Assembly: GCA_043820675.1 (NCBI GenBank)
Contig: JBDRDM010000079.1
Span: forward strand, 1-36,394
DNA from: Candidatus Micrarchaeota archaeon
Lineage (GTDB): Archaea > Micrarchaeota > Micrarchaeia > Norongarragalinales > SBBD01
DNA length: 36,394 nucleotides
Reading direction: 5' to 3'
Both the position numbers and the translations under genes were made by a program. The notes beneath the pieces are model-generated. The model made no database searches. It had not been told where the DNA came from and saw only the letters and a list, made by a program, of their open reading frames with translations. Shown here piece by piece: positions 2,648-27,968 of the stretch. Position 1 is the stretch's first letter. The number at the start of each line of letters is the position of its first letter.

Positions 2648-4114
2648 TTATTTGAGCCTGCGTATCACTCCATGATTGGCATCCAGCTCAACAAGCTCTC
2701 CATCCTTGAACACCTTGCTTGCAATCTTTGTGCCAACAAGGCATGGGATCCCCAGCTCCCGGCTCACAATTGCCGCATGGGACGTAATGCCCCCCTCATC
2801 AGTCACAATTGCCGCCGCCTTCTTCATTGCAACAACGTATTCTGGATCCGTGGATGGCGCAACCATAATGTCTCCCCCCATAAGCTTGGATATGTCCTTT
2901 GAGCTTGTCAGGATGGCCACCCTTCCTATTACCCTTCCTGCGCTTGCGCAGATTCCGTGTATTTCGGCAAAATCCTCGATCCCCTTTTCATCCCCAAAAA
3001 TTTCCACATATTTTGTCCTAGCCTCTTTTCCAACAAATATTAGGGGGGTTTTATGCTTGAAGATTATAAGCGAGTAACCGGTCCGTTCCCTTAAGTTGGG
3101 CCCATTTAGCTTTTTTCCCTTCATGATCTCCGCAATTTCCCATGGGAAGGCGTTTTTCAGCTGAATTGCCGTTATGTCCAAACGTTTTGTCATTTCATTG
3201 AAAAGTAAATCGAAATAATGCATAGTCCTAATCCAGTACATCTTCCTGATATCCTGGAAATTGCCGAATTCGTCCATGATGGCAATAAATGGGAGCATTT
3301 CCGTACCTAGGTGTAATTTTTTTAGAATCGCGATTTTTTCCCTTTGTGTGATCGGTGTCTCCTTTGCCTTTTCCATTCGGTCATTTGCCTTTCCATCCGG
3401 CGCTTCTTGCCTAATTATCTCCCAAAAATACGCTCCGTCTAGCACTTTTGATTCGAGGGAGTTGTTTTCCATCCAAAACCATTTGCGGGAATGTGCTTCA
3501 ATCAATTTCTGGTGGTTGATTTGCAATTTCTCATAGGGCAATCCGACCATTTTTACTGGTATGGCCCTATTAATTTTTTCACGTTCGTATTCCTCCTGTG
3601 CAAGGAATGATTTTTTGGTTGGAGACAGGAGCCTTGAGAGAATTGTTGCCTTATCCGAAGGCAATTTCCCTTTCCCGCCGGTGATTTTTTCCAAAATCGC
3701 TTCCTCACCGGCAATTGGGACGCTATCTACGAAAATGCTGTTTCTCCACATCGAATAATAAGCGCTAGAGAGGGCAGAGTACAATTTAAGCAGTAGGGAA
3801 TTTTCAATTTTTCTCAAATCCGCCCTTTCGATTTTCATGTACGCTGATTCGAGCTCTTTCAAATCCTTCCGGAATGCCTTCCAGACCTTAATCTTGAATT
3901 TCACATCGTTCAATTTAGTGAATGCAATTTTCCCAATTTCCAGCAATTTCCTTCTTGGGGAGCTCCACCTGGCTTTCCCATTTTCTATCGCAACAATTGT
4001 TATGCCGTAATCAACCCCCCAATCCTTGCTCATCATCACGGAAGATTGGGCAATTGCGTAGGTGGAATGCACTCCTGAGGCATAAAACCAATCCGACCAT
4101 ACTTCATCTTTCAT
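2648..4114 (-). CDS. PEP-utilizer mobile (phospho-His swivel) domain protein, paralogue 1
   Basis: C-terminal [28 protein letters not shown]. No ATP-grasp domain. The ATG at 4114 overlaps the upstream stop (ATGA). Confidence 0.85.
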   Translation of the reverse strand: MKDEVWSDWFYASGVHSTYAIAQSSVMMSKDWGVDYGITIVAIENGKARWSSPRRKLLEIGKIAFTKLNDVKFKIKVWKAFRKDLKELESAYMKIERADLRKIENSLLLKLYSALSSAYYSMWRNSIFVDSVPIAGEEAILEKITGGKGKLPSDKATILSRLLSPTKKSFLAQEEYEREKINRAIPVKMVGLPYEKLQINHQKLIEAHSRKWFWMENNSLESKVLDGAYFWEIIRQEAPDGKANDRMEKAKETPITQREKIAILKKLHLGTEMLPFIAIMDEFGNFQDIRKMYWIRTMHYFDLLFNEMTKRLDITAIQLKNAFPWEIAEIMKGKKLNGPNLRERTGYSLIIFKHKTPLIFVGKEARTKYVEIFGDEKGIEDFAEIHGICASAGRVIGRVAILTSSKDISKLMGGDIMVAPSTDPEYVVAMKKAAAIVTDEGGITSHAAIVSRELGIPCLVGTKIASKVFKDGELVELDANHGVIRRLK

Positions 4115-4998
4115 GCCAGCCCACTTTTTATCCCAAAATAGGAAGAAAAATTGCCCTCCCATTTGTGTTTTTCCTTCAGGCGGGAAAATTCCCTCTCGAA
4201 AGCCCTTAATTCATCTGTTGGCCCATTCCGCTTCCCTTCCCTAGCTATCCAGATTATCTTGAATGGCAAAGAGCGCAATTTCAACTTTATGGCGAGTGCG
4301 AAATTGCAAATCAGCATTCCTTCAATATTCTTCCACTCATCCTCGTAGCTTTTCGTGATTTGGATTCCCTTTCCTAGCATTGCATGATAGAATTTGTAAT
4401 AGCATTCTGCCGTCTTTTCCCCTCCATAGGGTATTGTCGAGTACATTTTATCGATTATTTTTTCAGTTCCACTGGCTTCGATGCTTTTTTTCAGAATGGA
4501 ATCGGTCCCACGGGATAGTGAAATAATTGAAAGCCCTTCCCGCCTGTCGCTATCTATTCGATTCCCCTTCGCAACCACATCCGGAAACGGTTTGATCCCA
4601 ATTTCTTCCCTCTCAACTGCAAGTTCCACGAAATCATAATATATTTCCCTTGCTTTCGTGCCCCTCCTTGGTGTTTTAATCAGGGCAATGATCGATTCGG
4701 CAAGCGGATTTGCTAAATTGAATCCCTTCTTTATATTTCCTCCAATTTCAATTCCATTTTTCCCAAGTTCCTGAATTATTTTCTCATCTTCGATTTCCAT
4801 AAGTGGCCCAAATGCCTGCCGGAGCCTTTTTTCATAAAGCTCCATTCCCGAACCCTTCATATCCGAAACGAGCGTGCCGTTGAAATCGTAAAGGGCGGCT
4901 TTTTGATATCCGGATTTTGGCGGTTTACGGATTTTGATGCTATTTTTCAATAGTGCTTCAAGCATCCCTTTGATTCCCCCTTCCTTTTCATTAAGCAT
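4111..4998 (-). CDS. HAD-superfamily hydrolase (divergent; loosely resembles enolase-phosphatase E1/MtnC)
   Basis: Motif I LYDFNGTL, PFPDV, motif II SLSRG, motif III Lys (GGEK) and motif IV YEDEWKN. Confidence 0.65.
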   Translation of the reverse strand: MLNEKEGGIKGMLEALLKNSIKIRKPPKSGYQKAALYDFNGTLVSDMKGSGMELYEKRLRQAFGPLMEIEDEKIIQELGKNGIEIGGNIKKGFNLANPLAESIIALIKTPRRGTKAREIYYDFVELAVEREEIGIKPFPDVVAKGNRIDSDRREGLSIISLSRGTDSILKKSIEASGTEKIIDKMYSTIPYGGEKTAECYYKFYHAMLGKGIQITKSYEDEWKNIEGMLICNFALAIKLKLRSLPFKIIWIAREGKRNGPTDELRAFEREFSRLKEKHKWEGNFSSYFGIKSGLA

Positions 4999-5001
4999 TG
5001 T

Positions 5002-6543
5002 TCATTCCTCTAATTTATAGACGGCGCCATGGTTTGCCCGAACTTCTAGCAAATCATTATCCTTGAAAACCTTTGAAGCAATGGATGTACCGATGACGCA
5101 GGGTTTTCCAAGCTCCCTACTGACTATTGCAGCGTGCGAGGTTATACCGCCCTCATCTGTTACTATTGCGCAGGCAAGTTTCATTGCCGGCACAATTTCG
5201 GGCCTTGTTGCCTTTGCTACAAGAACATCGCCCTTTTTTATTTTCCAAATGTCCTTTGATGAGTTGATGATTTTTGCCCTCCCCACTGCATAACCCAGTG
5301 ATGCACAAACCCCGAGCAGGTTTGTTGGATTTTTCATTTTGACCCTAGGCTTTAATTTTAAAATTCCCCTTTCCTTTTGAATTGCTTCCAAACCATGGTA
5401 AATATTGGCACCATCAAAATCGTATGCCAATAGGCAGTTCTTTGCCCTTACCTTCAGTTGGGCCTTAAATGCTGGATCCAGTATAGTTTCGAGCTCGATT
5501 TCCTTTGGAAGGGCGTACACGATTTGAGCCTCGCTGATTCCCACCCTTCTTGCTATTTCCTTTGCAATCAATTGGGAGTAATATACTGATCTAAGCATGA
5601 GCGTTTTCCTGAAATCCTGGTAGTATGCAATTTTGCCTATTAGGTCAAAAAGCTTCTGCAATTCCCCCGAAATGCCGAGCTCTTTTATTGCCCGCCTTTT
5701 GCGCTTCCTCCAATCCGCCCTTTTAGCCCTTGAATTTGCGAGTTGCCTTTCTGCTTTCTTTCCCGTTTGCATTTTCTCCTTGATGGAATTCAGGAAATAA
5801 TCTAGCCCCAATTTAGACGTGGATGCATACGAGTTGCTGATCCAATGGTATTTCTTTGCATGTTCTTCAAGCATTCCAAGGATGATTGGGTGTTTTTCCA
5901 ATTCCTTCATTATTTTGCCCGAATCCTTGGAAAAGATCTTCTTGTACTTTGGGATTTTTTCAATCTCCAACAATATTCCCAGCAATTCCCTTTCCTCCTT
6001 GCCATGGAAGGGCTCTTTGTATATGGGGGTTAGGTCCACGAAATATTCGGAATAGTTTTTTTCCAGGTTGTTTTTTGCTAGCAGCGCCATCAGGAGGCCA
6101 ATTGCCTTTTGCTCCAGGTAAAAGTAGGATGGTTCGACAAGATACCCTGCGGCATAGCTGTTTGTATAGCGGCGGTTTATCTCGTTTTCAATCTCTATTA
6201 GTTTTTCTAGGGGTGTGGATGCCAGGTCCATTTTTTCGATCCTTTTAAATACCCTCATTATGCCGGATAAATGTTCCTTGAAATCTTTTAGCGCCCTTTC
6301 AAAAAGCCCCTTTTCCTTGAGAAGCCGGGAAACCATGAATTTGCCGACCCCAAGGGTTTCCTTTCTCCTGATGTAATAGCGCGCATGTATCCTTGTAATT
6401 GCCATCAGTTGTAGGTGGATCCCCCTACCCCAGTATTTTTCGGTTGGCCTGCCAAACGGTTCCAAAGGCGGTGAAACTAGTAGTGGTGTGCATTCCGCAA
6501 AGTATTCGTAGAATTCGGGCTTTTCCAATTGTTTATTGTTCAT
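5002..6543 (-). CDS. PEP-utilizer mobile domain protein, paralogue 2
   Basis: C-terminal [28 protein letters not shown] preceded by a ~400-aa helical N-terminal region. Confidence 0.85.
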   Translation of the reverse strand: MNNKQLEKPEFYEYFAECTPLLVSPPLEPFGRPTEKYWGRGIHLQLMAITRIHARYYIRRKETLGVGKFMVSRLLKEKGLFERALKDFKEHLSGIMRVFKRIEKMDLASTPLEKLIEIENEINRRYTNSYAAGYLVEPSYFYLEQKAIGLLMALLAKNNLEKNYSEYFVDLTPIYKEPFHGKEERELLGILLEIEKIPKYKKIFSKDSGKIMKELEKHPIILGMLEEHAKKYHWISNSYASTSKLGLDYFLNSIKEKMQTGKKAERQLANSRAKRADWRKRKRRAIKELGISGELQKLFDLIGKIAYYQDFRKTLMLRSVYYSQLIAKEIARRVGISEAQIVYALPKEIELETILDPAFKAQLKVRAKNCLLAYDFDGANIYHGLEAIQKERGILKLKPRVKMKNPTNLLGVCASLGYAVGRAKIINSSKDIWKIKKGDVLVAKATRPEIVPAMKLACAIVTDEGGITSHAAIVSRELGKPCVIGTSIASKVFKDNDLLEVRANHGAVYKLEE

Positions 6544-6581
6544 GTCGGATTCCTTAAATTAAATTGGTTTCAGTCCTGATG

Positions 6582-8120
6582 TTATTTTATTTTCCTGACA
6601 ATCCCATGTGCCGCCCTAACTTCGAGCATATCGCCATCCTTGAATGCCTTCGAGCCGACCTTGGTACCGACAACACATGGTGTTCCAAGCTCCCTGCTCA
6701 CGATTGCCGCATGAGATGTGAGCCCTCCTTCATCCGTCACTATGGCAGCTGCAATTTTCATGCCCCGTACAAAATCCGGGGTGGTTGCAAGCGTCACCAG
6801 GATGTCTCCTTTTTGGAGCTTTGAAAGTTCGGATGCCTTGCGGACGATTTTTGCAGGTCCAGTTACGTTGCCCCCACATGCGCAGGTACCCTTAACTTCT
6901 GAGGGCGCTTTCATTGCTAGCAAATCCAATCCTTCCCGCCTAACGAAAACTTTCGCCTTTTCCCCCTCATAAACCTTTTCGCCCTTGGCGTCAACATAGA
7001 GCACGCAAAGCCTCATCCGTTCCCTGATTTTTTGAAGGGGCACCTTTCTTCCTTTGGTGCACCAATCCACGATTTCCGGAGGGGTCAGGTAGCAGGATTC
7101 GAGCCATGTTAAACCGATCCTCCTTGCGATCTCCACCTGGATGGATTTTAAGAGAAAGTGGCATTTAGTGAATTCTTCCTTTTTCAAATCAATCAAATAC
7201 GAGCCTTCCTGCAATATTTTGAACAATGTGAAGTGCGCCTTATCCATTTCCAGCTCCCTTGCAAGGCGCTTTTGCCTATCTGCCAATCCCACAAAATAGC
7301 GCCTCATTTCCCGCAACCTTTTTTTTGCATCAAATCCGGTCTCGATGTAATCCCTTATGGTTTTGAGGAAATGCCTGCGGCTCCAAGTGCGCCCCGCATA
7401 ATCGAACGGCACCCAGAAGAATTCAGTCGAATGCTTACCTAGCATTTTTTTTATTTTGGGATATTTGCCTATTCGATCCAATGCCTGATCCAATGAGCGT
7501 TCAAGCAATGCCGCATACTCATTGTTTTTACCAATCTCCAATGTGAGTCCAAGGAGGCTTTCTTCCTCCCTTGTTGAGAATGGTTTATTTTGTGAAGCAG
7601 ATAGCAATGCGAAATATTCGCCAAACTTACCTGTCCGCCCCTTCTTTTCGAGCAGCGCTTTCAAATATCCTTCGAGCCTGCGCGCGAGCTCATCTCCTAT
7701 TACGAAGGGAAGTGGCTCGCTGTATTGGTAAATTTCAAGGTAGGTTTCAAAGTATTTTTTGTAAATTTCACCCAATTCCGGCGTTGTTTTTCCCTTTATG
7801 GAGCCGTCTGCAAAACTTGCACAAAATTTCTTGAATAGCGCGATTTCCCTCCGGAACCTTTTTGAGAAATCGAAAATCAGTTCCGGTTTCCTGCTTACTA
7901 GCTCATATGCCTTCCTTCCTACTATTGCGCTTTCCTTTGCCGGACCATATACCGCAAACCCCCCAGCATCGTGGAATATTGTGATCATCCTTCTATAATC
8001 GAACCCGAGCGTCCTCCCCATCCGGTAGGTGTAAGAGCCAGCCGGCAGGTAGAGTTGGTTCAAATGCCAGTTCTCCGCCCTTTCCTGCAAAGCGACCCAT
8101 TTATGTTTCATTTTTTTCAC
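6582..8120 (-). CDS. PEP-utilizer mobile domain protein, paralogue 3
   Basis: C-terminal [25 protein letters not shown]. The GTG start overlaps the upstream stop (GTGA); an alternative ATG lies 3 codons downstream. Confidence 0.85.
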   Translation of the reverse strand: MKKMKHKWVALQERAENWHLNQLYLPAGSYTYRMGRTLGFDYRRMITIFHDAGGFAVYGPAKESAIVGRKAYELVSRKPELIFDFSKRFRREIALFKKFCASFADGSIKGKTTPELGEIYKKYFETYLEIYQYSEPLPFVIGDELARRLEGYLKALLEKKGRTGKFGEYFALLSASQNKPFSTREEESLLGLTLEIGKNNEYAALLERSLDQALDRIGKYPKIKKMLGKHSTEFFWVPFDYAGRTWSRRHFLKTIRDYIETGFDAKKRLREMRRYFVGLADRQKRLARELEMDKAHFTLFKILQEGSYLIDLKKEEFTKCHFLLKSIQVEIARRIGLTWLESCYLTPPEIVDWCTKGRKVPLQKIRERMRLCVLYVDAKGEKVYEGEKAKVFVRREGLDLLAMKAPSEVKGTCACGGNVTGPAKIVRKASELSKLQKGDILVTLATTPDFVRGMKIAAAIVTDEGGLTSHAAIVSRELGTPCVVGTKVGSKAFKDGDMLEVRAAHGIVRKIK

Positions 8121-9640
8121 TTTCTCAATATTTTGACTATTCCTCTCGTCGCATCAACCTCCACTTCCATCCCGTCCTTCAGCACATCCGTTGCAATCTT
8201 GGTGCCTACGATGCAAGGAGTCCCAAGCTCCCGGCTAACAATTGCCGCATGGCAAGTGATCCCGCCCGTGTTCGTGACGATCGCAGCCGCCTTCCTCATC
8301 GCGGGCACAACGTCCGGATTTGTTGCCTGCGCCACCAGGATGTCCCCCTTCTTCATTTTGGGCAAATCGGAAGGCGAGAGGATCTGCCTGACAATCCCCC
8401 TTGCAAATCCGGGGTTGGCGCACTTGCCCTTAAGTTCGCTGACATCTGTTTTCACATTTTCCTTTTCCACATCCTCATCCAATATGTGCCTTGCCTCCAA
8501 TCCCACAAATACCCTCGTCGAATTGTTTTCGCTTATTGCCACGCAAAAACGGCCCCGCTCATCGAGCAATTCCCTATTGGCATTCCCATCAAATAGCGCC
8601 CCCTTCACCTCTTCTGGAAGCATCATCCGCATCCGTGCAAGCGTTATTCTTGTCCTTTTTCCTATTTCAACAAGAAGCGGATTGATCTGGAAATAGCTTT
8701 TTTGGTAAAGGTCCTTCCGTTCCGCCTTGAAGTGCAGGATTTCGGATGCGATTTCAAATAAGTTCCGCTCATGCGCGGTTAACGGAATTTCTGAGAATGC
8801 CATTTGCCTTGCCTCTTTTTCCCGTTTTCGCCTTTCCTCGATTTTCCCAAGTTCCGCTTTCGGATCCTCTCCTGCTTTGAGCATCCCCGATATCGCCGAT
8901 ACGAAATATTCCTTTTTCCAGGGCTCTCCCTCGAAAATAACCGGCAGCCAAGTGTAGTTTTCATGATGTGCACTTAGCATATTGAAGAACTGTGGGTGAT
9001 TTTTCTTCAAAACCGAAATAATTTCAGCCTCCCGTTTTGTCCTAAACAATTCCTCCAATTCCTTTTTTCCCGCCGCTTCGCATGCCAATTCCAGCAGCTC
9101 CATTTCCTCCTTGCGCATGGTCGTGATTTTATCCGGCGTGGTGAGGGCATTGAAGTATTTGGGGGTTTCGCCTTCCCTTCCCTTGAGGTATTTTCCCAAT
9201 ATTGCCTCCAATTTGGAACTCAAGAAGCCGGTCATATCGAGCGCGGGCGCAATCCAGCCGTATCCGCGTGCGATTTTCAGGCGTTTGCAGTATTCCAGGT
9301 AATAGTCTAGCAGCTCAGCATTCGTTTTTTTCCCAAGGTCCGCTCCGCAAACCTCTTCCGTGATCCTGAAGACTTGATCCATTGATTCGTAGGTTTTCTT
9401 GATTGCCTTCTCCACGAAATAGGGGTCCTTCTCGATTTTTTTTACCAATTCCTTCGCAACTTTCTCAAATTCCCCCCTCCTCTCGTAGTAAATCCAGTTT
9501 TTCCCATGGAAAGATACCATCAGGCCCGATAGTCCAGTTCCGAGCGCTTTTTCCATCGGAACGGTTGCGGATTCCAGCATCAGGAAGATCGGGAACAAGC
9601 TGGCATCGCTTCTGCTATCTCCCTTAGCCCATTTTTCCAC
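8117..9640 (-). CDS. PEP-utilizer mobile domain protein, paralogue 4 (first gene of operon)
   Basis: C-terminal [28 protein letters not shown] start with a G-rich RBS (GGGGGAT). Confidence 0.85.
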   Translation of the reverse strand: MEKWAKGDSRSDASLFPIFLMLESATVPMEKALGTGLSGLMVSFHGKNWIYYERRGEFEKVAKELVKKIEKDPYFVEKAIKKTYESMDQVFRITEEVCGADLGKKTNAELLDYYLEYCKRLKIARGYGWIAPALDMTGFLSSKLEAILGKYLKGREGETPKYFNALTTPDKITTMRKEEMELLELACEAAGKKELEELFRTKREAEIISVLKKNHPQFFNMLSAHHENYTWLPVIFEGEPWKKEYFVSAISGMLKAGEDPKAELGKIEERRKREKEARQMAFSEIPLTAHERNLFEIASEILHFKAERKDLYQKSYFQINPLLVEIGKRTRITLARMRMMLPEEVKGALFDGNANRELLDERGRFCVAISENNSTRVFVGLEARHILDEDVEKENVKTDVSELKGKCANPGFARGIVRQILSPSDLPKMKKGDILVAQATNPDVVPAMRKAAAIVTNTGGITCHAAIVSRELGTPCIVGTKIATDVLKDGMEVEVDATRGIVKILRK

Positions 9641-9687
9641 ATCAATCCCCCAATAACTAGAGCGATACCCTTTAGGAACCCCGAACC

Positions 9688-9746: not shown

Positions 9747-9760
9747 CGGTTTTCAATTAG

Positions 9761-10273
9761 GTGGTTATGCCAATTGCGCGTATGGATGAATGGGCGGAGG
9801 GAGCTGGCCAAAATAGGAAAAACCATTTCAGCATCAAGATAGGCTATGGTGTGGCGCATCCGGATGTTCGGAAGGAACTACTCGCGATATCGACTGGTAG
9901 GCGGAAAAAATACACTTTAAGGGCAATTGAGAAGGCGGCAATGTTTGCATCCCTTGGTATGCCCGCTGCGGCCATTGCGGGCACGGGGATGCGGCATAGG
10001 GCGAATGAAAAAAATTCCCAAATAATGGTTTCCCTCAATACAATTGCTCAAAGGCTCAAAACCGGAGAACTCCTAAATCCCAAACTGCATGGGCGGGAGG
10101 CCGAGGAGGGAAGGATATTTGCCCTCCTGAAAAAGCACAGCCTTCTTCACCCCCACTTTTATGTGCGCACCTTGGGTAAAAAATTGATAATCACTTCGAA
10201 ACCCTCCGAAAAACGGCTGCAGGCTCTCACCCATTTGAGGGGGATAGCAAGGCCCCAAAGGCCTGTTTTATGA
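9761..10273 (+). CDS. hypothetical basic protein (paralogue of the downstream ORF)
   Basis: Fills the gap after a TATA-like box. Shares a C-terminal motif (FYVRTLGKKLIITSKP) with the next ORF. Start may be ATG 9767. Confidence 0.6.
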   Translation: MVMPIARMDEWAEGAGQNRKNHFSIKIGYGVAHPDVRKELLAISTGRRKKYTLRAIEKAAMFASLGMPAAAIAGTGMRHRANEKNSQIMVSLNTIAQRLKTGELLNPKLHGREAEEGRIFALLKKHSLLHPHFYVRTLGKKLIITSKPSEKRLQALTHLRGIARPQRPVL

Positions 10274-10361
10274 TTATTTGCATGCCCGAAAATTTTTAGT
10301 CATTTTGTTAAACACCAATCCGTCCCTAATATTCTTATATTCTCCCGTTGTTCATTGGTGC

Positions 10362-10865
10362 ATGGCCAAGGAATTGGTGAGTATACGCTCTTCTGAGGCA
10401 CGTGGCCAAGCCGGTTTCGAGGCACGTTTCCACAAGGACGCTCTTGCGAAGCACCTTCAAGAGAAAATAACAGAATTCGAGCGCTTGAAACATAAAAAAA
10501 CCGCGGCAAATGCCTCCTCTATAGCCCTGGGTTCGTCTGCTGTTTTGGCATCGGCAATTCATCTGGCGCTGGGAACTGGCACGCTAGCATTGGCGCTTTC
10601 CCAAAGGAAAAGGGCGAGAACATTGGCTGAAAAGATGCATGAGAATATGGGTTTATTCCCAGCGCGTATTCACAATAGTTCGAATTTTTTTGGCCGCAAT
10701 TACCCAAATCGCCACAGGGATTGGAAGGAGTTCGAAAAGGCAATAAGGTCGCTTCCATCGGGGACCCAGCTGTATGTGGGCATAGTTGGCAAGGAATTAG
10801 TCATTTCGAACAAACCGCCCCATTGGCGATTTTTCACTAATTTTGGCCAGGTGCGTGTTAGCTAA
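10362..10865 (+). CDS. hypothetical basic protein with central hydrophobic segment
   Basis: Probable ATG at 10362 (MAKELV). C-terminal LYVGIVGKELVISNKP resembles the upstream ORF. Confidence 0.6.
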   Translation: MAKELVSIRSSEARGQAGFEARFHKDALAKHLQEKITEFERLKHKKTAANASSIALGSSAVLASAIHLALGTGTLALALSQRKRARTLAEKMHENMGLFPARIHNSSNFFGRNYPNRHRDWKEFEKAIRSLPSGTQLYVGIVGKELVISNKPPHWRFFTNFGQVRVS

Positions 10866-11513
10866 TCAAAATCTTTGCCGTAGGGCGGCCTTGATGATCC
10901 GTGCTTCCGCTTTCCGGATGTGCTCTCGAAAAGTGCTCTCATCCACGCCTTCCTTTCCAGCAATTTGCTCCGCGGAGATTTTCCTTGGGAATTCGTAGTA
11001 GCCAAGCAAGGCCGCTTTCTTGATTGCCGCCCTTTGCTTTTCCGAAAGGTGCTCGAACACATTGGGAAGGAACATGTCAACCGGCTCTTCATGAAGAGAA
11101 ATCAGCCAGATTTTAACGCCACTCATTTTTGCAATGCGCTTTTCCAAATCATGCAAGTTTTTCTTGCTCCATGAGGCGATCGTCCAAAACTCAAAGCCGC
11201 CTTTTCCGATGATGGGCTTAATGAAAATCACTTCCGAATTCATGACCTGCGCGTTGAAGGCGTCCATCCCCTCGTGCTGGTAAAACACCTGGTTTCCCTC
11301 GACAGTCCGGACCTTGCTTCCCATGTGAGAGACCAATAATTTAATGTAACCCTCCTTATCGGCCCCCTGTACCAGCGAAACCTTGTTCACGAATGCCTTG
11401 CCTTTGTGGCTGTAAACATTTAGGTAATAGGAGGCGACCACTACATCGAACTTTGCGGTTGCCGCTATCAGGACGGATTTTTCCCTCTTGATTTTGAGCT
11501 CTGCGATCCACAT
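10866..11513 (-). CDS. HTH_10 (bacterio-opsin activator-like C-terminal HTH) transcriptional regulator
   Basis: LSEKQRAAIKKAALLGYYEFPRKISAEQIA...STFREHIRKAEARI is the HTH_10 consensus. The N-terminal part is a probable sensor domain. Confidence 0.9.
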   Translation of the reverse strand: MWIAELKIKREKSVLIAATAKFDVVVASYYLNVYSHKGKAFVNKVSLVQGADKEGYIKLLVSHMGSKVRTVEGNQVFYQHEGMDAFNAQVMNSEVIFIKPIIGKGGFEFWTIASWSKKNLHDLEKRIAKMSGVKIWLISLHEEPVDMFLPNVFEHLSEKQRAAIKKAALLGYYEFPRKISAEQIAGKEGVDESTFREHIRKAEARIIKAALRQRF

Positions 11514-11543: not shown

Positions 11544-12977
11544 TCAAACCTCAATTATCCTAACTTGCCCCTTTTTTGAATCGACCTCCAACAATTCCCC
11601 ATCGTGGAATGTTACGGTTGCAATTTCCGTTCCTACGATGCAGGGTATTTTAAGTTCCCGGCAGGTTATTGCCGCATGGGAGGTTATGCCGCCTTCGTCC
11701 GTTACGAGCGCTGCGCATCTCCGCAGGTAAGGCACGAAGTCCTGCCTTGTCATGGATGTCACCATCACATCCCCCCGCCTAATTTTCATAAGGTCCTTGT
11801 TGGTGTTGACAATCCTTGCCGGGCCCGTCGCGGCGCCCTTGGATCCGGCCCTGCCCATAAGGCATCCGGTTCCTTGGCGATTACTATTGCCAAGTTCAAG
11901 GCGCGCAATCCTTGCCGCTTCCGTTCCCCCGAAAATTTTCACCTCCTCGCCATCCTGGATTATCAGCCATTCCTTCCTGCGGTTGCGGATTACTTTTATT
12001 GTTGGCGCCTTACCGTTTTCCAGGAATTTTACAATCTCATCGTTTGTTAGCAGATTCGTTTCCTCAATGCCAAGATGCGCCCTCCTCCCAATTTCCAGGT
12101 ACAGTCTGCGCGCATGGAAATTGACCTTTTGCCTTAGCATGTCGCGGTAATCCCTCAAGTGGATCATTTCTGAATAAAATTCAAGAAGAGCAGCCAAGCT
12201 CCGTGTGGGCCTTAATTCCAAAATCGCCCGTTCATATTTCCCTTTCCTGCTTTCGTATGCGGCAGCCAGTTCCCTTAATTCCTTCCTTGGCTCCCTGATT
12301 CTCGAAATTTCCCCTTGAAAATGCGCTTTCGAAAAAGGTTCATGGTCGAAACCGTACATCGGCATATGGGTGAATTTTTCCGTGTGGGCTTCAATTAGCT
12401 CTTCGAATTCCCCCTTTCCGACCTTCCCCCTCAGGGATGCAATTTTCAAGGCATCCATTCTCTCCTCCTGAATATTGCTTAATCCCAAGGGGAAGGAGAA
12501 GATATTCAATAACCGGGCCGTTTTACCTTTGTTGTTTGTGGTTTCCTGCAGCTTTTTTTCAATTGCGGCCTCAAGCGGGTGGCTGATGCGGTAAACCATC
12601 CACATCCTTGCATAAAAAGAGGGCTGCATTTCCAGCACGAATTTCCTGAACAGTTTGGAGAGTCCGCGGTTGCTAATCCCTTGCAGATCGCCTGAAAATG
12701 ACCTTTCACTCCATGTTTCCGCCATCTCCAGGAATTGCCTGGCCTTTGGGCATGCGGTCTTTAAGAAACCCCCTCTATTGATCAGCCTTTCCAATTGGGC
12801 ATTGAACTTCCCGTATTCCTTCGCATCGACAAAGTAGTCGGTTGATTTTCCATTGAAATGCTGGAGCGTCCTGGAAATTGAGGTGCCGAAGTGCTTTTCG
12901 AAGGGATTCCCAAAACCCAAATTCCATGCAATAGCCATCTGGGGTGCGAGCCTGCGCGTGTTGATTTTTATCCACAT
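11544..12977 (-). CDS. PEP-utilizer mobile domain protein, paralogue 5
   Basis: C-terminal ALVTDEGGITSHAAITCRELKIPCIVGT. Probable ATG at 12977 (MWIKINTR). Confidence 0.85.
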   Translation of the reverse strand: MWIKINTRRLAPQMAIAWNLGFGNPFEKHFGTSISRTLQHFNGKSTDYFVDAKEYGKFNAQLERLINRGGFLKTACPKARQFLEMAETWSERSFSGDLQGISNRGLSKLFRKFVLEMQPSFYARMWMVYRISHPLEAAIEKKLQETTNNKGKTARLLNIFSFPLGLSNIQEERMDALKIASLRGKVGKGEFEELIEAHTEKFTHMPMYGFDHEPFSKAHFQGEISRIREPRKELRELAAAYESRKGKYERAILELRPTRSLAALLEFYSEMIHLRDYRDMLRQKVNFHARRLYLEIGRRAHLGIEETNLLTNDEIVKFLENGKAPTIKVIRNRRKEWLIIQDGEEVKIFGGTEAARIARLELGNSNRQGTGCLMGRAGSKGAATGPARIVNTNKDLMKIRRGDVMVTSMTRQDFVPYLRRCAALVTDEGGITSHAAITCRELKIPCIVGTEIATVTFHDGELLEVDSKKGQVRIIEV

Positions 12978-13070
12978 CTCATCCACTTGAGCAATTCGGC
13001 AAAATCCATCCGCTTTCTTCACAAAAAGCAAATTGATGTAATTTCATTCCTTGATCCTTCATCCGGTAAT

Positions 13071-15212: not shown

Positions 15213-15305
15213 ACGCTCAACCCGCAATATCCAAATAAATCAGTCGGATGATATCTTTCGGGAATGCGCCTATTTTAACCTTTTGAACGCATTAAACCCG
15301 ATTTA

Positions 15306-19584: not shown

Positions 19585-19645
19585 TATTCCCCCTTTTTTA
19601 GATTAAATCGAAATCATTAATAAAGAAGCATGGATTCATCCTTCC

Positions 19646-20659: not shown

Positions 20660-23503
20660 CTACGGAAGGAAATCCTTGTTACTGATCTTTTCGGGCAAAT
20701 AGGTGTTTGAGATGTACTGGAGGTTCTTGCTGCTAAGGGATTGGATTTCCGCCTTTATTTTCTTTACCAGGAACTTGTCGATTTCCTTTTGCCATTCCTT
20801 TGACTTGAACCAGTCGTAGGCCTTCATTTCCGTTGCTCGCTTTATGTCGACCTCCTTTGCCTTGATTGTGACGGCCTTCAAATCATAGTGCTCGATGTCG
20901 GAAATGCTCATCCCCAGGAATTTCATTTCCTTGCATCCCAATCTTCCCGACTCATGCGCAAGCGCCATGGAGCCATATTTCATCGTGGAATAAATGTACC
21001 ACCCATACGGGTCGGCGTCCGTATTTGAAACCAGAATTTGCCCAATTCCTGTCACAAATGAATGAGCCGGAGATACCTCTATATCGTAAACCATGCCCTT
21101 TGTCGGTTGTATTTCGATAATTCTTTTCGTTTTTAGTAGAACAAGTCCGTTCTCCACGATATTCTTCAATACCAGCAGCTTCCTGGCTCCTTCGGCATCA
21201 AGTGCAGGTTCTTTTGAGGCGCGGCGCCATCTCCAGTCTCCCTTCACTTTTAGACCCTTCACCAAGCCTTTTGCAGCCATCCTCTTAAGCGCTTTAAAAG
21301 CGGTGATGAATTTGCTCCCAGTTGCCTTCGCGATCTCTGACGTGGAGATGGATTTTTCGGGGTTTGATGGGAGTGTATCAAGCAAAGTGTCCTTTATTAA
21401 CAGGCTTTCGGGTTTTTCACCAACAACTGTCAGTAAAGGTTCAAGCCTTTCAAAAGCAATCCGTTTCTGATTATTTACGAGGGGGGAAGTGCCCTTTTTC
21501 GAAATCTGGTATATTTCTTTCTGCACTTTTTTGATGATTTCGGAAGGCACGGATTTTCTGATCGAAAGTTTCGAAGTGGGCGCCTGCAAATATTTCCACA
21601 CCTTTTCCCTTTCCCCCCCGGCCTTGTCCATGACTGTTTCTGAAAGGCTCGCAAGTGTCTTGTGGTCCTGGATCACTATGTTGTATCGGTCTTTTTCAGT
21701 TGTCACTTTTGTAACGATGTGATTTACCGAAGCCCAGCCCCCAAGCTGGTGAATAAGGAATACTAAATCAGATGCAAGCTTGCGGCTTATTGTTGTTGCC
21801 GAGAGCCTGCATCCCCTTCTTGAGAAAACAAGGGTGCCGTCGCCCCGGAAGTAGCCCCTAATGAACTCCTTTTTCAGGTCATTAGGCGCGTTAAAAACTA
21901 TCCACGGAATCCTTTTGTTCCCTGCGCCTTCCCCCGCATCCAATAAATCCCGCAGGATTGCCTCGGTTAACATGCCCCCAAATTCTACCCGCAGGGAAGT
22001 TTTCCTGTCATGAACATGTGCCCTTACACCGAATGACCTCTCCGCGGCAACCGAGGCGTCCATTGCATATTCGTTTTCATGCGGACCGAATGTGAGGGCG
22101 ACTTTCCCCCCCAAAGAGCCCTCGCTGGCATAATAGCCCAGCAACCTGAATAGATCTGGTGAAAACGGAATTTTAGATTTTACGCGCACTTCGGATTTGC
22201 CCCATCGGATTTCTTTTATTTGCGATTTATCGAGATTCTTTATTGGTACGAAGCCAGACGATGCTTCTGTCCTCGCCTGCACGTTTTGAGAAATTCCGTT
22301 ATTCCCTAGAACCTCTCCTGCTATATCTATTTCCTTCATTTCTTGCACGTTAAGCGGATTTGATGCAGAAATGATGTAGTCGGCTTGCTTCAGTTCAACC
22401 GGCGGCCGTGAAACGATCTCAAATTTTTCAGAGTCAAACACCTTCAGGCTGTGGGATCGCGTTACCCTTGCGGAATATCCGCCCTCAGCTTCGATTTCAA
22501 GCAGGGGCTCGCTTATTTCGTGCCTCACTGCATTAACAATCATCCCGGTTTCAGCCTTCCCTTCTTTGCCGACTGCCAGTGAATCGCCGAGTGCAAACGA
22601 CTTCTGGAAATAGCCCATGTCTGTAATGCCATAAACTTGCATTGCATTGTCAACGAATTTCCCTATTTCGGGGCGCTTTATCAACCCATCCTCCCCGATT
22701 ATCATCAGTGGTTCGTTTGAATCAACGCTAAGGCAGTAGACCGGCAATTTGAGCTCATCGCTCATCCTTTGCAAAAGCCTCCTAGCGCCCCTTGCGGCCT
22801 GCCCAGCTGTCGTCATCAAAAGGCACTTGTTCTTCTTCCAGTATTCGTCCTCGTTCAAGCGGTCGAAGATGGCGTTCTTTTCCGCTACAAGGACGTATTC
22901 GATCTCGTGGTCCATGAATTCTATCTGTTCGACAATCGAGGGCACGGCAAGCCCGCCGCTCCCAAGCTTGCTCAGATCGATTATGGATTCCCTTTCGCGC
23001 ACGTAATCCTTTATCTTCATGAGGCCCGCCATCCTTCCCTTGGGCTCTGCGCGCAGGTGGAGCATTTCCCTAAACGTATCCAAAGAGACCTCGAAATCAA
23101 CTATTGCAAGGTCCGATTCCTTCTGCTCGTCGATCGTATCCTCCCTGGTTCCGGCAATGGTGCGCTTCTTTGCATAGTAAAGATCCCTAAGCGTTGCCGT
23201 AAGGTTATTTTCCAGGAGGTCCTTTTTCACATAGCTCGCAACGAGCATGGTCTGCATGAACCTCCTTGCATGGGACACATTGAACAAATACCTCTTGGCG
23301 ACCTTGCTGCCGAGCACGATCTTCTTGTTCTTTTCATCGAAGGCGACATTGCTGCTGCCCCTCACGGGAATGTCTATGTGCGGATTGTCGCCCTTTTCGA
23401 TCTCGGAAACGAGCTCGTCTGCGAATTTGCCGATCCTTCTTAGTGTCTCCTCGCGGTTCTTTTCGCGCTTCGCCATCCCGCCGATGTCCTTTTTTTCTGC
23501 CAT
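20660..23503 (-). CDS. top6A: DNA topoisomerase VI subunit A, intein-containing
   Basis: Catalytic LRDLYY, TOPRIM VAEK and TDADPYG motifs. Removing the intein restores LPVYCL/TDADPYGWYIYS and gives 378 aa. Confidence 0.95.
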   Translation of the reverse strand: MAEKKDIGGMAKREKNREETLRRIGKFADELVSEIEKGDNPHIDIPVRGSSNVAFDEKNKKIVLGSKVAKRYLFNVSHARRFMQTMLVASYVKKDLLENNLTATLRDLYYAKKRTIAGTREDTIDEQKESDLAIVDFEVSLDTFREMLHLRAEPKGRMAGLMKIKDYVRERESIIDLSKLGSGGLAVPSIVEQIEFMDHEIEYVLVAEKNAIFDRLNEDEYWKKNKCLLMTTAGQAARGARRLLQRMSDELKLPVYCLSVDSNEPLMIIGEDGLIKRPEIGKFVDNAMQVYGITDMGYFQKSFALGDSLAVGKEGKAETGMIVNAVRHEISEPLLEIEAEGGYSARVTRSHSLKVFDSEKFEIVSRPPVELKQADYIISASNPLNVQEMKEIDIAGEVLGNNGISQNVQARTEASSGFVPIKNLDKSQIKEIRWGKSEVRVKSKIPFSPDLFRLLGYYASEGSLGGKVALTFGPHENEYAMDASVAAERSFGVRAHVHDRKTSLRVEFGGMLTEAILRDLLDAGEGAGNKRIPWIVFNAPNDLKKEFIRGYFRGDGTLVFSRRGCRLSATTISRKLASDLVFLIHQLGGWASVNHIVTKVTTEKDRYNIVIQDHKTLASLSETVMDKAGGEREKVWKYLQAPTSKLSIRKSVPSEIIKKVQKEIYQISKKGTSPLVNNQKRIAFERLEPLLTVVGEKPESLLIKDTLLDTLPSNPEKSISTSEIAKATGSKFITAFKALKRMAAKGLVKGLKVKGDWRWRRASKEPALDAEGARKLLVLKNIVENGLVLLKTKRIIEIQPTKGMVYDIEVSPAHSFVTGIGQILVSNTDADPYGWYIYSTMKYGSMALAHESGRLGCKEMKFLGMSISDIEHYDLKAVTIKAKEVDIKRATEMKAYDWFKSKEWQKEIDKFLVKKIKAEIQSLSSKNLQYISNTYLPEKISNKDFLP
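21023..22729 (-). mobile_element. intein (569 aa) with LAGLIDADG homing endonuclease and a winged-HTH-like insert
   Basis: Starts SVDSNEPL; block B TRSH; LAGLIDADG motifs LLGYYASEGS and FIRGYFRGDG; block F VYDIEV; ends ILVSN followed by +1 Thr. Confidence 0.92.
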
Positions 23504-23609
23504 AACGATTTACCTTGATACGCCATTTAATCGGAAAATGGGTTTCCCCAATTTGCCGCCTTTGCAAAACAATTGTTTATGTTCAATATGCCCCCAAATC
23601 CCGCTGCTA

Positions 23610-25478: not shown

Positions 25479-25550
25479 ATGGTGAATTCACTACTTGTTT
25501 TTCTGATGAATATTACGGTTGGCCAATTTGGCTTATTTTCCGAATCTCAA

Positions 25551-26075
25551 TCACTTCAAATTATACTTCCTTTCCCTGTTCTTTTTCTCCATATAAGCGT
25601 AAACGCCCGTGTGGGGCGAACCTTCAAGGAGCCGCAAGATTCCCTCCTTAGCAAGCTGCAGGTCGTCAAATTCCCCAAGGACCGCAACCTTGTGCCCCGA
25701 AACCGCGACGAAAGCCCCTGTAATTTCTGTGATCGTCGCTTTCGCCTTGCCGCCCGCGCCGATGATGCGTCCCTTGTACCTTTCTATCGCTTTCTCATTT
25801 GGAAGGACTAGGGCAAGGTCGATGATCTCGAGGAAATAGTTATCGCTGAAAAGTTTAAAAGCATGTTGCGGCAGGAAGCCGTAATTGATGGCTTTAAGCA
25901 CCTGTTCTGCCACCCAAACCTTTCCGCTCTCGCCATCCAGCTCGAGGTTGCCATCAGGATTCAGCTTTATTCTGACTTCGCCCTTCTTTTCGAGCTGCCT
26001 GCGGAGGCTTTCGCCATTCTTTGAAAGCGCATCTGCGGTTGATTTTGATATCGGAAGAAGTTCCATTTTTTCCAC
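25551..26075 (-). CDS. KH-domain rRNA-processing protein (aDim2/Pno1)
   Basis: KAINYGF, RYKGRIIGAGGKAK and GSPHTGVY motifs; usual position upstream of top6B. Confidence 0.9.
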   Translation of the reverse strand: MEKMELLPISKSTADALSKNGESLRRQLEKKGEVRIKLNPDGNLELDGESGKVWVAEQVLKAINYGFLPQHAFKLFSDNYFLEIIDLALVLPNEKAIERYKGRIIGAGGKAKATITEITGAFVAVSGHKVAVLGEFDDLQLAKEGILRLLEGSPHTGVYAYMEKKNRERKYNLK

Positions 26076-26173
26076 ATTTTTAGGGGCTTATTTCCCTTTA
26101 AGGGTCGAGTAATCCTCTCTAAAACCAATAGGCAAGGCCCTGTTTTCCCTCATGAATTAGAAAAAGCAGCCTT

Positions 26174-26332
26174 TTAATGGCTTCTGGAGCGAACGCGCAC
26201 GATTCCTTTTTTCCCATCCATTTCAACAAGATCGCCGTCATGCAGGGTGCGGGTGCCAAATTTCGTTCCGACTATGCACGGTATCCCAAGCTCCCGGCTT
26301 ACAATTGCCGCATGCGAGGAAATCCCGCCTCC
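26174..26332 (-). pseudogene. 5'-truncated remnant of a PEP-utilizer mobile domain gene
   Basis: Manual translation [52 protein letters not shown]. There is no start codon between it and an in-frame stop about 8 codons upstream. Confidence 0.8.
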
Positions 26333-26417
26333 CCCCTGCTTTCTGGCAGAATTGCGAAATTATAGATGGGCGCGCACTTGTACCTTCCGGCATAATGATA
26401 ATCGCGCTCATTTGGTT

Positions 26418-27968
26418 TCATTGTTTGATCCTCCTTACGGTGCCGTTGATTCCATCGACTTCAATCATATCCCCCGTCTTGAAAACCTTTGTCGCGTTCT
26501 TGGTTCCAACAATGCAAGGAAGCCTGAACTCCCTGCTAACTATTGCTGCATGCGAGGAAAGGCCGCCCTCATCAGTTACTATTGCGGCGACCTTCCTGAA
26601 CAGGGGAGTGAATTCCATCGTCGTCATGTAGGTGACAAGTATTTCGCCTTCCTTCACCAGATCCCTCTCCGCAGGCGTTTTCACTACCCTTGCCTTTCCT
26701 GTTGCTAAGCCACCGCATCCCACAATTCCGTGCAGCAAAGAGGCCTTTCCGGAGCTGGCAAACTGCCAATAGATGCCCTCCTCCCTCAAAATGGTTTCCT
26801 TATTTCCCGAATAGATTTTGAATGGCCTTCCATGGGAGATTGCAATATAGCCCTTTTTCCTTTTTTCAATTTCAGCTGGCGGGACTATCTCCCCCTTCTG
26901 GAGGAATAATTCAATTTCATCCAGGGAATGGAATGTGGCCTCTTCCTTGCTGCAATCCATCCTACGAGCTAATTCGGCAATCAAAGGCTGCCAATTTAAG
27001 TAGGCTTCCGAATATTTCCCCTTCGCCCAGTCCCTTTGGTTGGTGAATTCTTCGAGGACATCGAGGATGCGAAGGATTTTTTTGGGGGGTTTTAGGCGAC
27101 GGAGCAATTTGCGCTTTTTTGCCAAGGCGACCCTGTATCCAAGCAGCAAATCCGAAAGCTCCTCCTTGCAGTTCCTGCGCAAATCCCTCCTGAACGCCTC
27201 GATCCACTGGCTCCGGGTCCAGGGCACGCTCATGTACTCGCTAGTTGTCCAGGCGTAATCGGTGATATGTCTGTCGAATTCCCGCTTCAATTTGGGGTAC
27301 TTCTCAAACGCTTGCTCGATGCGAATGGGGGAATCCAAGTAGAATGCCTTCTGGACCTCCCCGTTCATTTGTATGCGGGAGGCGATCCCAAGGAAGCTTT
27401 CGCGCTCCCTGAACGGCACCGATTTTTCCCTGCTGGCAGATAGGGTTTCAACGCATTCCTGGTACCTATCCGTTTCATTCCATTCGGAAAATTTCGCAGT
27501 CAGGAATTTTGAGAGCTCGAAACGGGGGTTCCAGCAGCATTCTATTCCCCATAGCTGGACTGTGATAATCGGACCTATTGCCATGGCCTTCCGGAAATCC
27601 CTGAATAGCCCAAGCAGTTCTGCACCCCCCAATTTGCGCAAATTCGCGCCTCCAAAGGCCAATGACGCGTTATTCACCTTTTTAAAGAATTTGTTGGAAA
27701 GGGCGCTTAGCTTTTTTTGCGTGCACCTGCCTGTCGATATGTCCTCTTGGAATGCCTTTGTGTTCCTCCTCAGCTCCTGTTCGTCATAGAAAATGTACGC
27801 GCCGTCGCCTGGGGTGAAAGCCGCAAGGTAGTTGTGCCTGCTGAACCGAACTGCCGGAAAGTAGCCTTCGCCTTTAAGGCCTTCGGAAAAAAGTTCAGCC
27901 TGCGTAAGTGCCATATTCCTTCTGTGCGCCCAAACCCATTTGATGCCCGTTGGCTTGTAGACTTCCAT
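26418..27968 (-). CDS. PEP-utilizer mobile domain protein, paralogue 6
   Basis: C-terminal [28 protein letters not shown]. Same architecture as paralogues 1-5. Confidence 0.85.
   Translation of the reverse strand: MEVYKPTGIKWVWAHRRNMALTQAELFSEGLKGEGYFPAVRFSRHNYLAAFTPGDGAYIFYDEQELRRNTKAFQEDISTGRCTQKKLSALSNKFFKKVNNASLAFGGANLRKLGGAELLGLFRDFRKAMAIGPIITVQLWGIECCWNPRFELSKFLTAKFSEWNETDRYQECVETLSASREKSVPFRERESFLGIASRIQMNGEVQKAFYLDSPIRIEQAFEKYPKLKREFDRHITDYAWTTSEYMSVPWTRSQWIEAFRRDLRRNCKEELSDLLLGYRVALAKKRKLLRRLKPPKKILRILDVLEEFTNQRDWAKGKYSEAYLNWQPLIAELARRMDCSKEEATFHSLDEIELFLQKGEIVPPAEIEKRKKGYIAISHGRPFKIYSGNKETILREEGIYWQFASSGKASLLHGIVGCGGLATGKARVVKTPAERDLVKEGEILVTYMTTMEFTPLFRKVAAIVTDEGGLSSHAAIVSREFRLPCIVGTKNATKVFKTGDMIEVDGINGTVRRIKQ

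Follow-up and report, generated by a model that had tools for sequence, protein, structure and literature searches.

Six paralogous genes of a micrarchaeal genome as candidate acceptor subunits of a two-component, rifampin phosphotransferase-like dikinase

We analyzed a 36,394-bp stretch of a Candidatus Micrarchaeota genome (contig JBDRDM010000079.1 of assembly GCA_043820675.1, contig C79 here, referred to at its full length as the window), a quarter of which (9,159 bases) is taken up by six paralogous genes. These genes probably encode the acceptor subunits of an ATP-dependent dikinase for small molecules that has two components and belongs to the rifampin phosphotransferase (RPH) superfamily, and in which a single charging subunit would serve many acceptors. 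The evidence was obtained computationally and comprises the architecture and fold of the proteins, an invariant histidine, the presence of a separately encoded ATP-grasp protein and its co-occurrence with the family, fused forms, and the retention of orthologues across genera. The assembly to which the window belongs is 1.24 Mb in size (131 contigs, 84.7% complete), and the gene set of the window is small and archaeal in type, with topoisomerase VI subunits A and B, purine synthesis genes, TruD, and a KH protein (open reading frame (ORF) listing and Pfam). The six paralogues are spread among these housekeeping genes:

2648-4162, minus strand: paralogue 1, 504 amino acids; PF00391 at residues 430-498; overlaps a 295-amino-acid gene by 52 nucleotides
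5002-6543, minus strand: paralogue 2, 513 amino acids; PF00391 at residues 435-506
6582-8120, minus strand: paralogue 3, 512 amino acids; PF00391 at residues 436-506
8117-9640, minus strand: paralogue 4, 507 amino acids; predicted substrate-binding domain at residues ~1-395, then the swivel domain (PF00391 at 430-500, with His464)
11544-13031, minus strand: paralogue 5, 495 amino acids; PF00391 at residues 418-488
26418-27968, minus strand: paralogue 6, 516 amino acids; PF00391 at residues 439-509

Paralogue 4 is the first gene of a tightly packed run and overlaps the following gene by 4 nucleotides, while paralogue 6 lies 13 kb off the array with housekeeping genes around it. At E ≤ 0.01, each protein matched a single Pfam family, the C-terminal swivel domain PF00391 (phosphoenolpyruvate (PEP)-utilizers mobile domain; 75.8-90.7 bits against a cut-off of 23.1), and the motif TxxGGxxxHAAIxxRE was present in all six sequences of the alignment. 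Pairwise identity over the C-terminal ~110 residues was 38.9-58.9% (mean 48.4), compared with 14.1-23.5% (mean 19.0) over the N-terminal ~395 residues; the proteins can be aligned end to end, albeit poorly over this first part. A profile built from the six recovered each of them at E ≤ 1e-185, along with full-length copies elsewhere in the genome, and judging from the sequences the pattern of six homologous genes is far beyond chance. The Pfam profile search gave no match to the ATP-grasp family PF01326 or the PEP/pyruvate barrel PF02896 on the contig, and no carbohydrate-binding module or other extra domain in the six proteins. A preliminary description of this stretch had reported six minus-strand genes with a conserved C-terminal swivel and divergent N-terminal regions of ~400 amino acids, with neither ATP-grasp nor barrel in the genes or the window, all of which is borne out by Pfam and the alignment identities; the sizes it gave (~480-515 amino acids) are corrected by the ORF coordinates to 495-516. 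The maximum 19-residue Kyte-Doolittle mean of the paralogues was 0.93-1.33, and because they therefore lack a hydrophobic segment, they are predicted to be soluble and cytoplasmic.

Matches of the six proteins to NCBIfam models were all sub-threshold and mostly confined to the swivel. They included PEP synthase (NF005057, 109.3-132.8 bits against a cut-off of 598), RPH (NF041857, 48.7-85.1 against 999), PigC (56.9-82.8 against 1300), RedH (54.1-91.6 against 1350), and the ~600-amino-acid PRK08296 models, which we take to represent PpsA-like proteins and which matched over the swivel only (50-106 bits against cut-offs of 578-730). In paralogue 6, residues 277-511 aligned to positions 622-861 of the RPH model, under its cut-off. 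Automatic annotation had been expected to mislabel such genes as PEP synthase, but the nearest Atlas clusters are named "hypothetical protein" or "PEP-utilising enzyme mobile domain-containing protein".

We assessed the fold of the divergent N-terminal region with an AlphaFold model of paralogue 4 (mean pLDDT 89.8, pTM 0.82) built on an alignment of the 14 genomic paralogues; the fold was modelled for this one protein, and the remaining copies are tied to it by profile homology. The model is mostly helical, followed by a beta-rich C-terminal domain. Its top six Foldseek matches in the PDB were all entries for the Listeria enzyme RPH-Lm (E 4e-14 to 1e-11), and in VIA-align residues 1-506 aligned to residues 327-867 of the 5fbt chain (Z 20.0, 455 residues aligned), with the N-domain alone (1-393) aligning to RPH residues 326-751 at Z 12.3. 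Residues 1-314 of RPH form the ATP-grasp domain, followed by a large rifampin (RIF)-binding domain and the swivel at 767-865 (available sections of PMC4844700). Because the model aligns to RPH from residue 327 to 867, the window proteins correspond to RPH minus its ATP-grasp domain. An ATP-grasp or PEP-barrel fold of the N-terminal region was ruled out, as the only long matches of the model were to the RPH substrate-binding and swivel domains; chains of PPDK, PEP synthase, enzyme I, and pyruvate kinase matched in the swivel part only (~100-109 aligned residues for PPDK and PEP synthase). The structural comparison with RPH that had been proposed earlier thus returned the RPH substrate-binding fold from both Foldseek and VIA-align, and the view that the N-terminal regions are mutually homologous substrate domains agrees with this fold and with family profiles that recover one another. 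At the profile level, the full-length family matched RPH over query positions 259-513 (E 3e-26) and the N-domain alone had RPH as its best, weak PDB match (E 0.009), and PEP synthases were the top match of the swivel part in both the PDB and NCBIfam. The swivel histidine and the flanking GG...HAAI..RE residues were invariant in all 14 full-length copies of the genome.

Those 14 copies belong to a family of ~16 in the genome once fragments are included. Pfam placed PF00391 at 18 positions in the assembly, as follows for the family and for PEP synthase:

Window (six copies), contigs C48, C1, and C26 (two each), C61 and C86 (one each): 14 full-length paralogues of 479-533 amino acids, the one on C86 being open at the 5' end of the contig
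Contig C57, L043:4440-5561, minus strand: shortened paralogue of 373 amino acids with intact swivel (PF00391)
Contig C53, at its end: paralogue fragment (PF00391)
Window, 26195-26329, minus strand: apparent relic of a swivel C-terminus, ~45 codons in a 61-amino-acid open frame (PF00391 positions 31-72, 52.3 bits)
Contig C70: genuine PEP synthase (970.7 bits against the NCBIfam cut-off of 598), carrying the only PF02896 match of the assembly

The ATP-grasp family PF01326 was found at only two places in the whole assembly, in the PEP synthase on C70 and in a stand-alone gene of 320 amino acids on C48 (333.9 bits, positions 2-311 of 328). On C48 this gene is followed on the same strand by a 130-amino-acid ORF and the paralogues of 515 and 533 amino acids. 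The ATP-grasp protein is 44% identical to the N-terminus of the genome's PEP synthase, and its best PDB matches were PEP synthases and the RPH ATP-grasp domain. No family was found for the 130-amino-acid ORF, which did not match the HAD hydrolase of the related cluster described below (genome G004) and is 26% identical to a 125-amino-acid ORF at the equivalent place in genome G002. A separate ATP-grasp partner had been predicted from the window alone, and one was thus found in this genome and one in each of six other genomes of the genus. A complex predicted from ATP-grasp and paralogue alignments scored 0.24 against a mark of 0.32, without controls, and was used neither for nor against the proposal.

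We then compared the distribution of the two components in relatives, using the N-domain profile to search 41 genomes (0.7-1.6 Mb) that belong to the same order and include this genome. Matches were present in 28 of the 41, with up to 25 per genome, counts that are not exact copy numbers. A stand-alone ATP-grasp gene, defined as a frame of ≤425 amino acids or one cut by a contig end, was detected in 16 of these 28 genomes versus none of the 13 lacking N-domain matches; the genomes are kin and not independent, so this co-occurrence is a count rather than a test, and we prefer the raw numbers to the Fisher p of 4e-4, which treats kin genomes as independent and is overstated. G033 was counted with two short ATP-grasp frames, of which the 422-amino-acid one may be a cut PEP synthase; the G039 match lies in a 1305-amino-acid frame and was scored as not stand-alone, and the G023 match, cut by a contig end, as stand-alone. 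Within the genus, all seven genomes encode exactly one stand-alone ATP-grasp protein versus 4-25 N-domain matches. By coordinates, the ATP-grasp gene adjoins paralogues in at least 10 genomes (G002, G003, G004, G006, G011, G017, G020, G023, G031, and G040). In G004, for example, the order is an NFACT_N gene, ATP-grasp (320 amino acids), a HAD hydrolase (197 amino acids), an HTH_10 gene (215 amino acids), and seven paralogues with a 269-amino-acid ORF among them, and G002 has a shorter version of this cluster. In a wider sample of the phylum, the N-domain occurred at E ≤ 1e-10 in 32 of 201 genomes, among the best nine candidates per genome, and within that same limit large match numbers were confined to this order. 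The earlier suggestion that the genes encode the substrate-plus-histidine subunits of a split dikinase therefore gains from the co-occurrence of an ATP-grasp protein with the family, from its position beside the family in relatives, and from some database proteins that combine the two in one chain.

Several points weigh against this reading, beginning with the two limits on the counts given above. No stand-alone ATP-grasp gene was detected in 12 of the 28 family-bearing genomes, and the exceptions include genomes with many N-domain matches (16 in G007, which is ~90% complete in 8 contigs, 13 in G015, 11 in G039, 10 in G009, 8 in G010, and 5 in G035); a repeat search of G007, G015, G013, G035, and G009 with a specific ATP-grasp profile returned only a PEP-synthase-sized gene. 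Such genomes either encode the partner in a part that was not assembled or charge the carriers from another donor (PEP synthase or PEP). In the 131-contig assembly studied here the window copies are not adjacent to the ATP-grasp gene, unlike the two copies on C48 and those of relatives including G002 and G004. All NCBIfam matches of the paralogues lie far under cut-off, so no characterized equivalog applies. The phosphate-site residues of RPH appear only partly kept, with K/R, D/E, and K/R in 10, 6, and 10 of the 14 copies in the columns aligned to Arg666, Glu667, and Lys670, respectively, on a weak hidden Markov model alignment (E 0.009) that is unreliable at this divergence. Finally, the swivels are about as close to the swivel of the genome's own PEP synthase (40%-58% identity in 13 of 14 copies, 36% in the fourteenth) as they are to one another (mean 49.6%).

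This last similarity would suit a system in which the same acceptors take their phosphate from PEP synthase, whether by its ATP-grasp domain acting in trans or from PEP by way of its C-terminal domain, as would the best matches of the swivel to PEP synthases and the kinship of the stand-alone ATP-grasp protein to the PEP synthase N-terminus. The genomes with only a PEP-synthase-sized ATP-grasp gene (G007 with 16 N-domain matches, G015 with 13, G009 with 10, G035 with 5, and G013 with 2) point in the same direction. However, among the 41 genomes the stand-alone gene occurs only together with the family, usually as its neighbor, and some proteins combine it with the N-domain in one chain, while PEP synthase does not track the family, since the thirteen genomes without paralogues do have PEP-synthase-sized matches. 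We know of no precedent for a PEP synthase that charges a foreign swivel domain, and we regard this donor as unlikely. Of the two donors named in the preliminary description, a shared ATP-grasp protein was found, and PEP synthase (or PEP) keeps a place as the sole candidate in some many-match relatives.

We assessed the age of the paralogues with best-hit comparisons and a maximum-likelihood tree of 27 proteins, comprising the 14 copies of this genome, seven from G004 (same genus), and six from G007 (another genus), with no rows dropped and four long branches flagged. Five orthologue groups with support of 100/99-100 joined window or C48 copies to G004 and G007, with 38%-57% identity to orthologues versus 28%-36% to paralogues. 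Among the window copies, paralogue 1 grouped with G004_2959 (51% identity, support 100/100), paralogue 2 with G007_3682 and G004_4410 (48%, 100/100), paralogue 3 with G007_8273 (39%) and G004_8952 (38%; 100/100), and paralogue 4 with proteins of G004 (49%) and G007 (47%). Paralogue 5 sits on a long branch (1.84) and had no orthologue in the two compared loci (best matches 26%-30%), and paralogue 6 also sits on a long branch (1.85). Because orthologues are closer than paralogues across genera, the divergence of the copies appears to be old and maintained, a pattern that fits distinct functions rather than ongoing hypervariation. The N-domains had been called hypervariable, and their identity is indeed low; the divergence, however, is old, with orthologues kept across genera, rather than continuing. 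Since the divergence is old and conserved, we infer that the acceptors differ in substrate, and each copy may phosphorylate a different small molecule.

Some copies are incomplete. The relic at 26195-26329, situated in the 340-nucleotide spacer directly downstream of paralogue 6, retains the histidine motif without any N-terminal part and shares 55%-69% identity with the 14 paralogues at their C-termini; it is apparently either what is left of a seventh copy or the product of a partial duplication. The shortened copy on C57 is adjoined by a phage-integrase-family gene (L043:5645-6481, plus strand) and may have been cut by a mobile element. These two cases, together with the long branches and low N-domain identity, are what would be expected if the copies were decaying or selfish duplicates without individual functions. 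We find this hardly credible, given 14 intact frames with an invariant histidine, orthologues kept across genera, operon-like packing with overlaps of 4 and 52 nucleotides, and 1340 representative clusters of the family at E ≤ 1e-30. Around the dispersed copies (C1, C26, C61, C86, and C57) lie unrelated genes of housekeeping or mobile type (HMG-CoA reductase, HerA, phosphoglucomutase, GT2 glycosyltransferase, Sua5, a DNA alkylation repair protein, DEAD helicase, and integrase), which offered no substrate clue.

The family extends well beyond this order. Against 1.84 billion representative proteins, the N-domain profile matched 6116 at E ≤ 1e-3, 4461 at E ≤ 1e-10, and the 1340 above at E ≤ 1e-30. 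Among the best 150 of the 6116 representatives, 109 are 440-560 amino acids long, 23 exceed 900 amino acids with two to five repeats of the unit, and seven also carry an ATP-grasp domain, including an RPH-like fusion of 829 amino acids. Other fused forms are chains with one ATP-grasp domain followed by several units and a prediction of 2309 amino acids with four units and one ATP-grasp domain, and in a database protein of 721 amino acids the unit is fused to a HAD domain. Six long predictions (P0001, P0002, P0033, P0051, P0116, and P0126; 1300-2300 amino acids) consist of two to five tandem units, some opening with ATP-grasp; these may be real multi-acceptor chains or gene-calling read-through, for example, at a reassigned stop codon. 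In a scan of species genomes, relatives were found in three metagenome-assembled genomes (MAGs) labelled Patescibacteria, a 0.9-Mb chromosome, one MAG labelled Gammaproteobacteria, and one labelled Candidatus Woesearchaeota. The Gammaproteobacteria-labelled MAG has an 813-amino-acid fused form (locus L025), three tandem units precede a stand-alone ATP-grasp gene in a Patescibacteria-labelled locus (L022), and the Woesearchaeota-labelled locus has four tandem units. The match in the latter MAG, together with the topoisomerase VI genes, the genome size, and the taxa of Atlas clusters, would by itself suggest a Woesearchaeota-type DPANN archaeon as the source of the window.

Taken with the characterized systems HpeHI, PpsAB, and RPH, from which trans-phosphorylation, the products of the reaction, and the kind of substrate are drawn by analogy, the two-component proposal would operate as follows. 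The 320-amino-acid ATP-grasp protein, encoded once on C48, would bind ATP and phosphorylate the conserved swivel histidine in trans (His464 in paralogue 4). The charged swivel would then dock on its own N-domain and hand the phosphate to the molecule bound there, yielding substrate-phosphate, AMP, and phosphate. One charging subunit would in this way serve ~16 acceptors here and up to ~25 in congeners.

Other genes accompany the array. Two of them lie on the minus strand of the window among the paralogues:

4111-4998, minus strand: accessory gene of 295 amino acids inside the array, with motif I DFNGT
10866-11513, minus strand: HTH_10 DNA-binding protein of 215 amino acids (PF04967 at residues 156-208, E 1.1e-15)

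The HTH_10 protein is 68% identical to the 215-amino-acid gene product at the same place in the G004 cluster, HTH_10 genes are also found in the clusters of G002 and G007, and the protein is likely a transcription regulator kept with the array. The 295-amino-acid protein is 46% identical to the product of the 269-amino-acid gene in the G004 array and 39% identical to that of a 286-amino-acid gene in the G007 array. Because both genes match counterparts in these arrays, the window array appears to be part of a conserved cluster that is split over contigs in this assembly. The relic swivel fragment, the 295-amino-acid gene, the HTH_10 gene, and the finding that the window holds only six of ~16 copies are additions to the preliminary description.

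The 295-amino-acid protein had no match in NCBIfam or in Pfam, in the latter case even at E ≤ 10. Atlas features placed it near HAD clusters (0.94, with TM 0.43-0.53) and its motif DFNGT has Asn in place of the second Asp of DxDx[TV], whereas its model is poor (pLDDT 64.2) and gave no clear fold match (best Foldseek E 2.5e-3; best wide VIA Z 6.2, to non-HAD chains), and hhalign against the canonical HAD of the cluster gave a probability of 0.3. It is possibly a very divergent HAD-like protein, an unconfirmed lead from Atlas and the motif. The canonical HAD (PF00702; 197 and 198 amino acids, L035:12647-13240 in G004 and L036:3708-4304 in G002) lies between the ATP-grasp and HTH_10 genes. Its motif I, DFVGV, likewise lacks the usual second Asp, and it starts with a long hydrophobic stretch that suggests a membrane location. 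Contig C9 of the present genome carries its nearest homologues, of which one is truncated where the contig begins.

Such linked hydrolases raise the possibility that the histidine relay activates its substrate only transiently, as in the PigC/RedH/HapC prodiginine ligases, where a carbonyl is activated for condensation, or that it opens a sequence of phosphorylation, modification, and dephosphorylation. For several paralogues, the PigC and RedH models fit as well as the RPH models do, with alignments that take in some of the N-domain and the swivel (e.g., residues 316-501 to positions 688-880); PF00702 genes stand in the G004 and G002 clusters and a HAD domain is fused to a paralogue in the 721-amino-acid protein; and the Hpe pathway proceeds from phosphorylation to carboxylation and dephosphorylation (available sections of PMC12167813). 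However, the PigC and RedH matches are far under family cut-offs, no condensation or carboxylation partner genes lie beside any copy examined, and the 295-amino-acid protein is not confirmed as a HAD, so that we consider a relay of this kind quite improbable. The hydrolases linked to the cluster, including the canonical HAD with its hydrophobic start, could also serve a cycle in which the acceptors modify polymers, cell-surface or host-derived macromolecules, by analogy with glucan water dikinases and their dedicated phosphatases; going by titles and abstracts in the literature, glucan water dikinase belongs to the same group of histidine-swivel dikinases. We give this very little credence, as the paralogues have no carbohydrate-binding module and are predicted to be soluble, and the N-domain has the small-molecule-binding fold of RPH.

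Several further features of the window and genome were recorded. Two adjacent plus-strand ORFs with similar C-terminal ends (9761-10273, 170 amino acids, and 10278-10865, 195 amino acids) are candidate genes without a Pfam or PADLOC match; they occupy the 1.2 kb that separate paralogue 4 from the HTH_10 gene, two genes whose counterparts in G004 are direct neighbors. A role in anti-phage defence was considered and set aside after PADLOC assigned no family to any of nine proteins (three paralogues, the ATP-grasp protein, the 295-amino-acid and HTH_10 proteins, the 130-amino-acid ORF, and the two plus-strand ORFs), though such a result does not prove absence. The topoisomerase VI subunit A gene (20660-23503, minus strand, 947 amino acids) contains an intein with a LAGLIDADG endonuclease domain, and a second intein-bearing gene, a HerA-type ATPase of 1022 amino acids (L039:1608-4676, plus strand), lies directly upstream of a paralogue on C1. 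The 718-amino-acid protein at 13071-15227 (minus strand) combines glutamine amidotransferase and phosphoribosyltransferase domains (PurF-like) with a C-terminal formyltransferase domain (PurN-like), apparently a fusion of two enzymes of the purine pathway. A look-up of sequencing runs turned up no RNA run, whereas small shares (0.15 and 0.10) of the sampled words were contained in two DNA runs with the label groundwater metagenome, from which we draw no claim on habitat or expression.

Returning to the proposed two-component dikinase, the family's share of DNA gives some measure of its weight, as the 14 full-length genes of ~1.5 kb make up ~1.7% of this assembly, in genomes of ~1.2-1.6 Mb that lack most metabolism. 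More tentatively, the system may be a hub-and-spoke arrangement in which one ATP-grasp charger, possibly with PEP synthase as a backup, loads 4-25 interchangeable, substrate-specific phospho-histidine carriers kept as orthologue sets across genera. An array with one charger is also present in Patescibacteria (CPR), and the system would be a main route by which reduced and probably host-dependent cells trap, activate, or neutralize many different molecules of hosts or neighbors, with the linked hydrolase-like genes lacking the second Asp providing a second phospho-step. We consider this wider picture somewhat less likely than not. If one ATP-grasp protein does charge many acceptors, this would be a modular enzyme organization not described for dikinases in the literature searched, and it would indicate a large unknown set of phosphorylated metabolites in DPANN-type archaea and CPR bacteria. 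New ATP-driven small-molecule kinases can readily be drawn from this family as well: two-component relatives are being explored for lignin valorization (available sections of PMC12167813) and RPH relatives are regarded as a proto-resistome (available sections of PMC4844700). It is also a warning for metabolic reconstructions, in which the paralogues should not be counted as PEP synthase. A limited literature search that did not extend to supplements found nothing on an expansion of this family in DPANN or CPR genomes, and in the available part of a preprint on Nanobdellota (10.64898/2026.05.13.725050) the word "dikinase" occurs 0 times and PEP synthase is treated only as KEGG K01007.

Among known systems, the closest parallel is offered by HpeHI of Rhodococcus rhodochrous GD02, a two-component hydroxyphenylethanone dikinase in which both subunits are needed and the histidine is essential; HpeH consists of RIF-binding-like and swivel domains, and HpeI is an ATP-grasp protein of ~40 kDa (available sections of PMC12167813, as for the HpeHI, CreHI, and PpsAB comparisons that follow). 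The family described here shares with it an acceptor made of substrate-binding domain and swivel histidine without ATP-grasp, and a separate ATP-grasp protein encoded in the same genome. HpeH is larger, however (71 kDa versus ~57 kDa for the paralogues), no close sequence kinship of its N-domain was detected in a comparison based on the published description alone, and HpeHI is one pair for one pathway, encoded in an aromatic-catabolism operon of a large bacterial genome, whereas here one ATP-grasp protein faces ~16 acceptors in an archaeal genome of 1.2 Mb that offers no catabolic context. Phenylphosphate synthase, PpsAB(C), and 4-methylbenzyl phosphate synthase, CreHI, both homologous to HpeHI, are likewise two-component enzymes, and there both parts are needed to phosphorylate a phenolic substrate in an ATP-dependent reaction; unlike the paralogue family, they are bacterial, single-copy, and devoted to phenol or cresol degradation (PMC12167813). 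RPH-Lm (PDB 5fbt and 5hv1) shares the substrate-binding and swivel fold along the whole length of the paralogues (Z 20), but is a single chain carrying at its N-terminus an ATP-grasp domain that the paralogues lack, and identity is 15%-18%. Among RPH homologues the RIF-binding region diverges fast while ATP-grasp and swivel are conserved (available sections of PMC4844700), and the paralogues similarly pair a divergent N-domain with a conserved swivel. With PEP synthase (the genome's own copy on C70, and PDB 8a8e) the paralogues have the closely related swivel in common, but neither ATP-grasp nor PEP/pyruvate barrel. Two-component dikinases with the same split (HpeHI, CreHI, and PpsAB) are already in print, and the system is therefore not undescribed, as had been suggested: the split RPH-like dikinase was known, and what differs here is the proposed one-to-many layout, with many acceptors for one charger in very small genomes without catabolic context.

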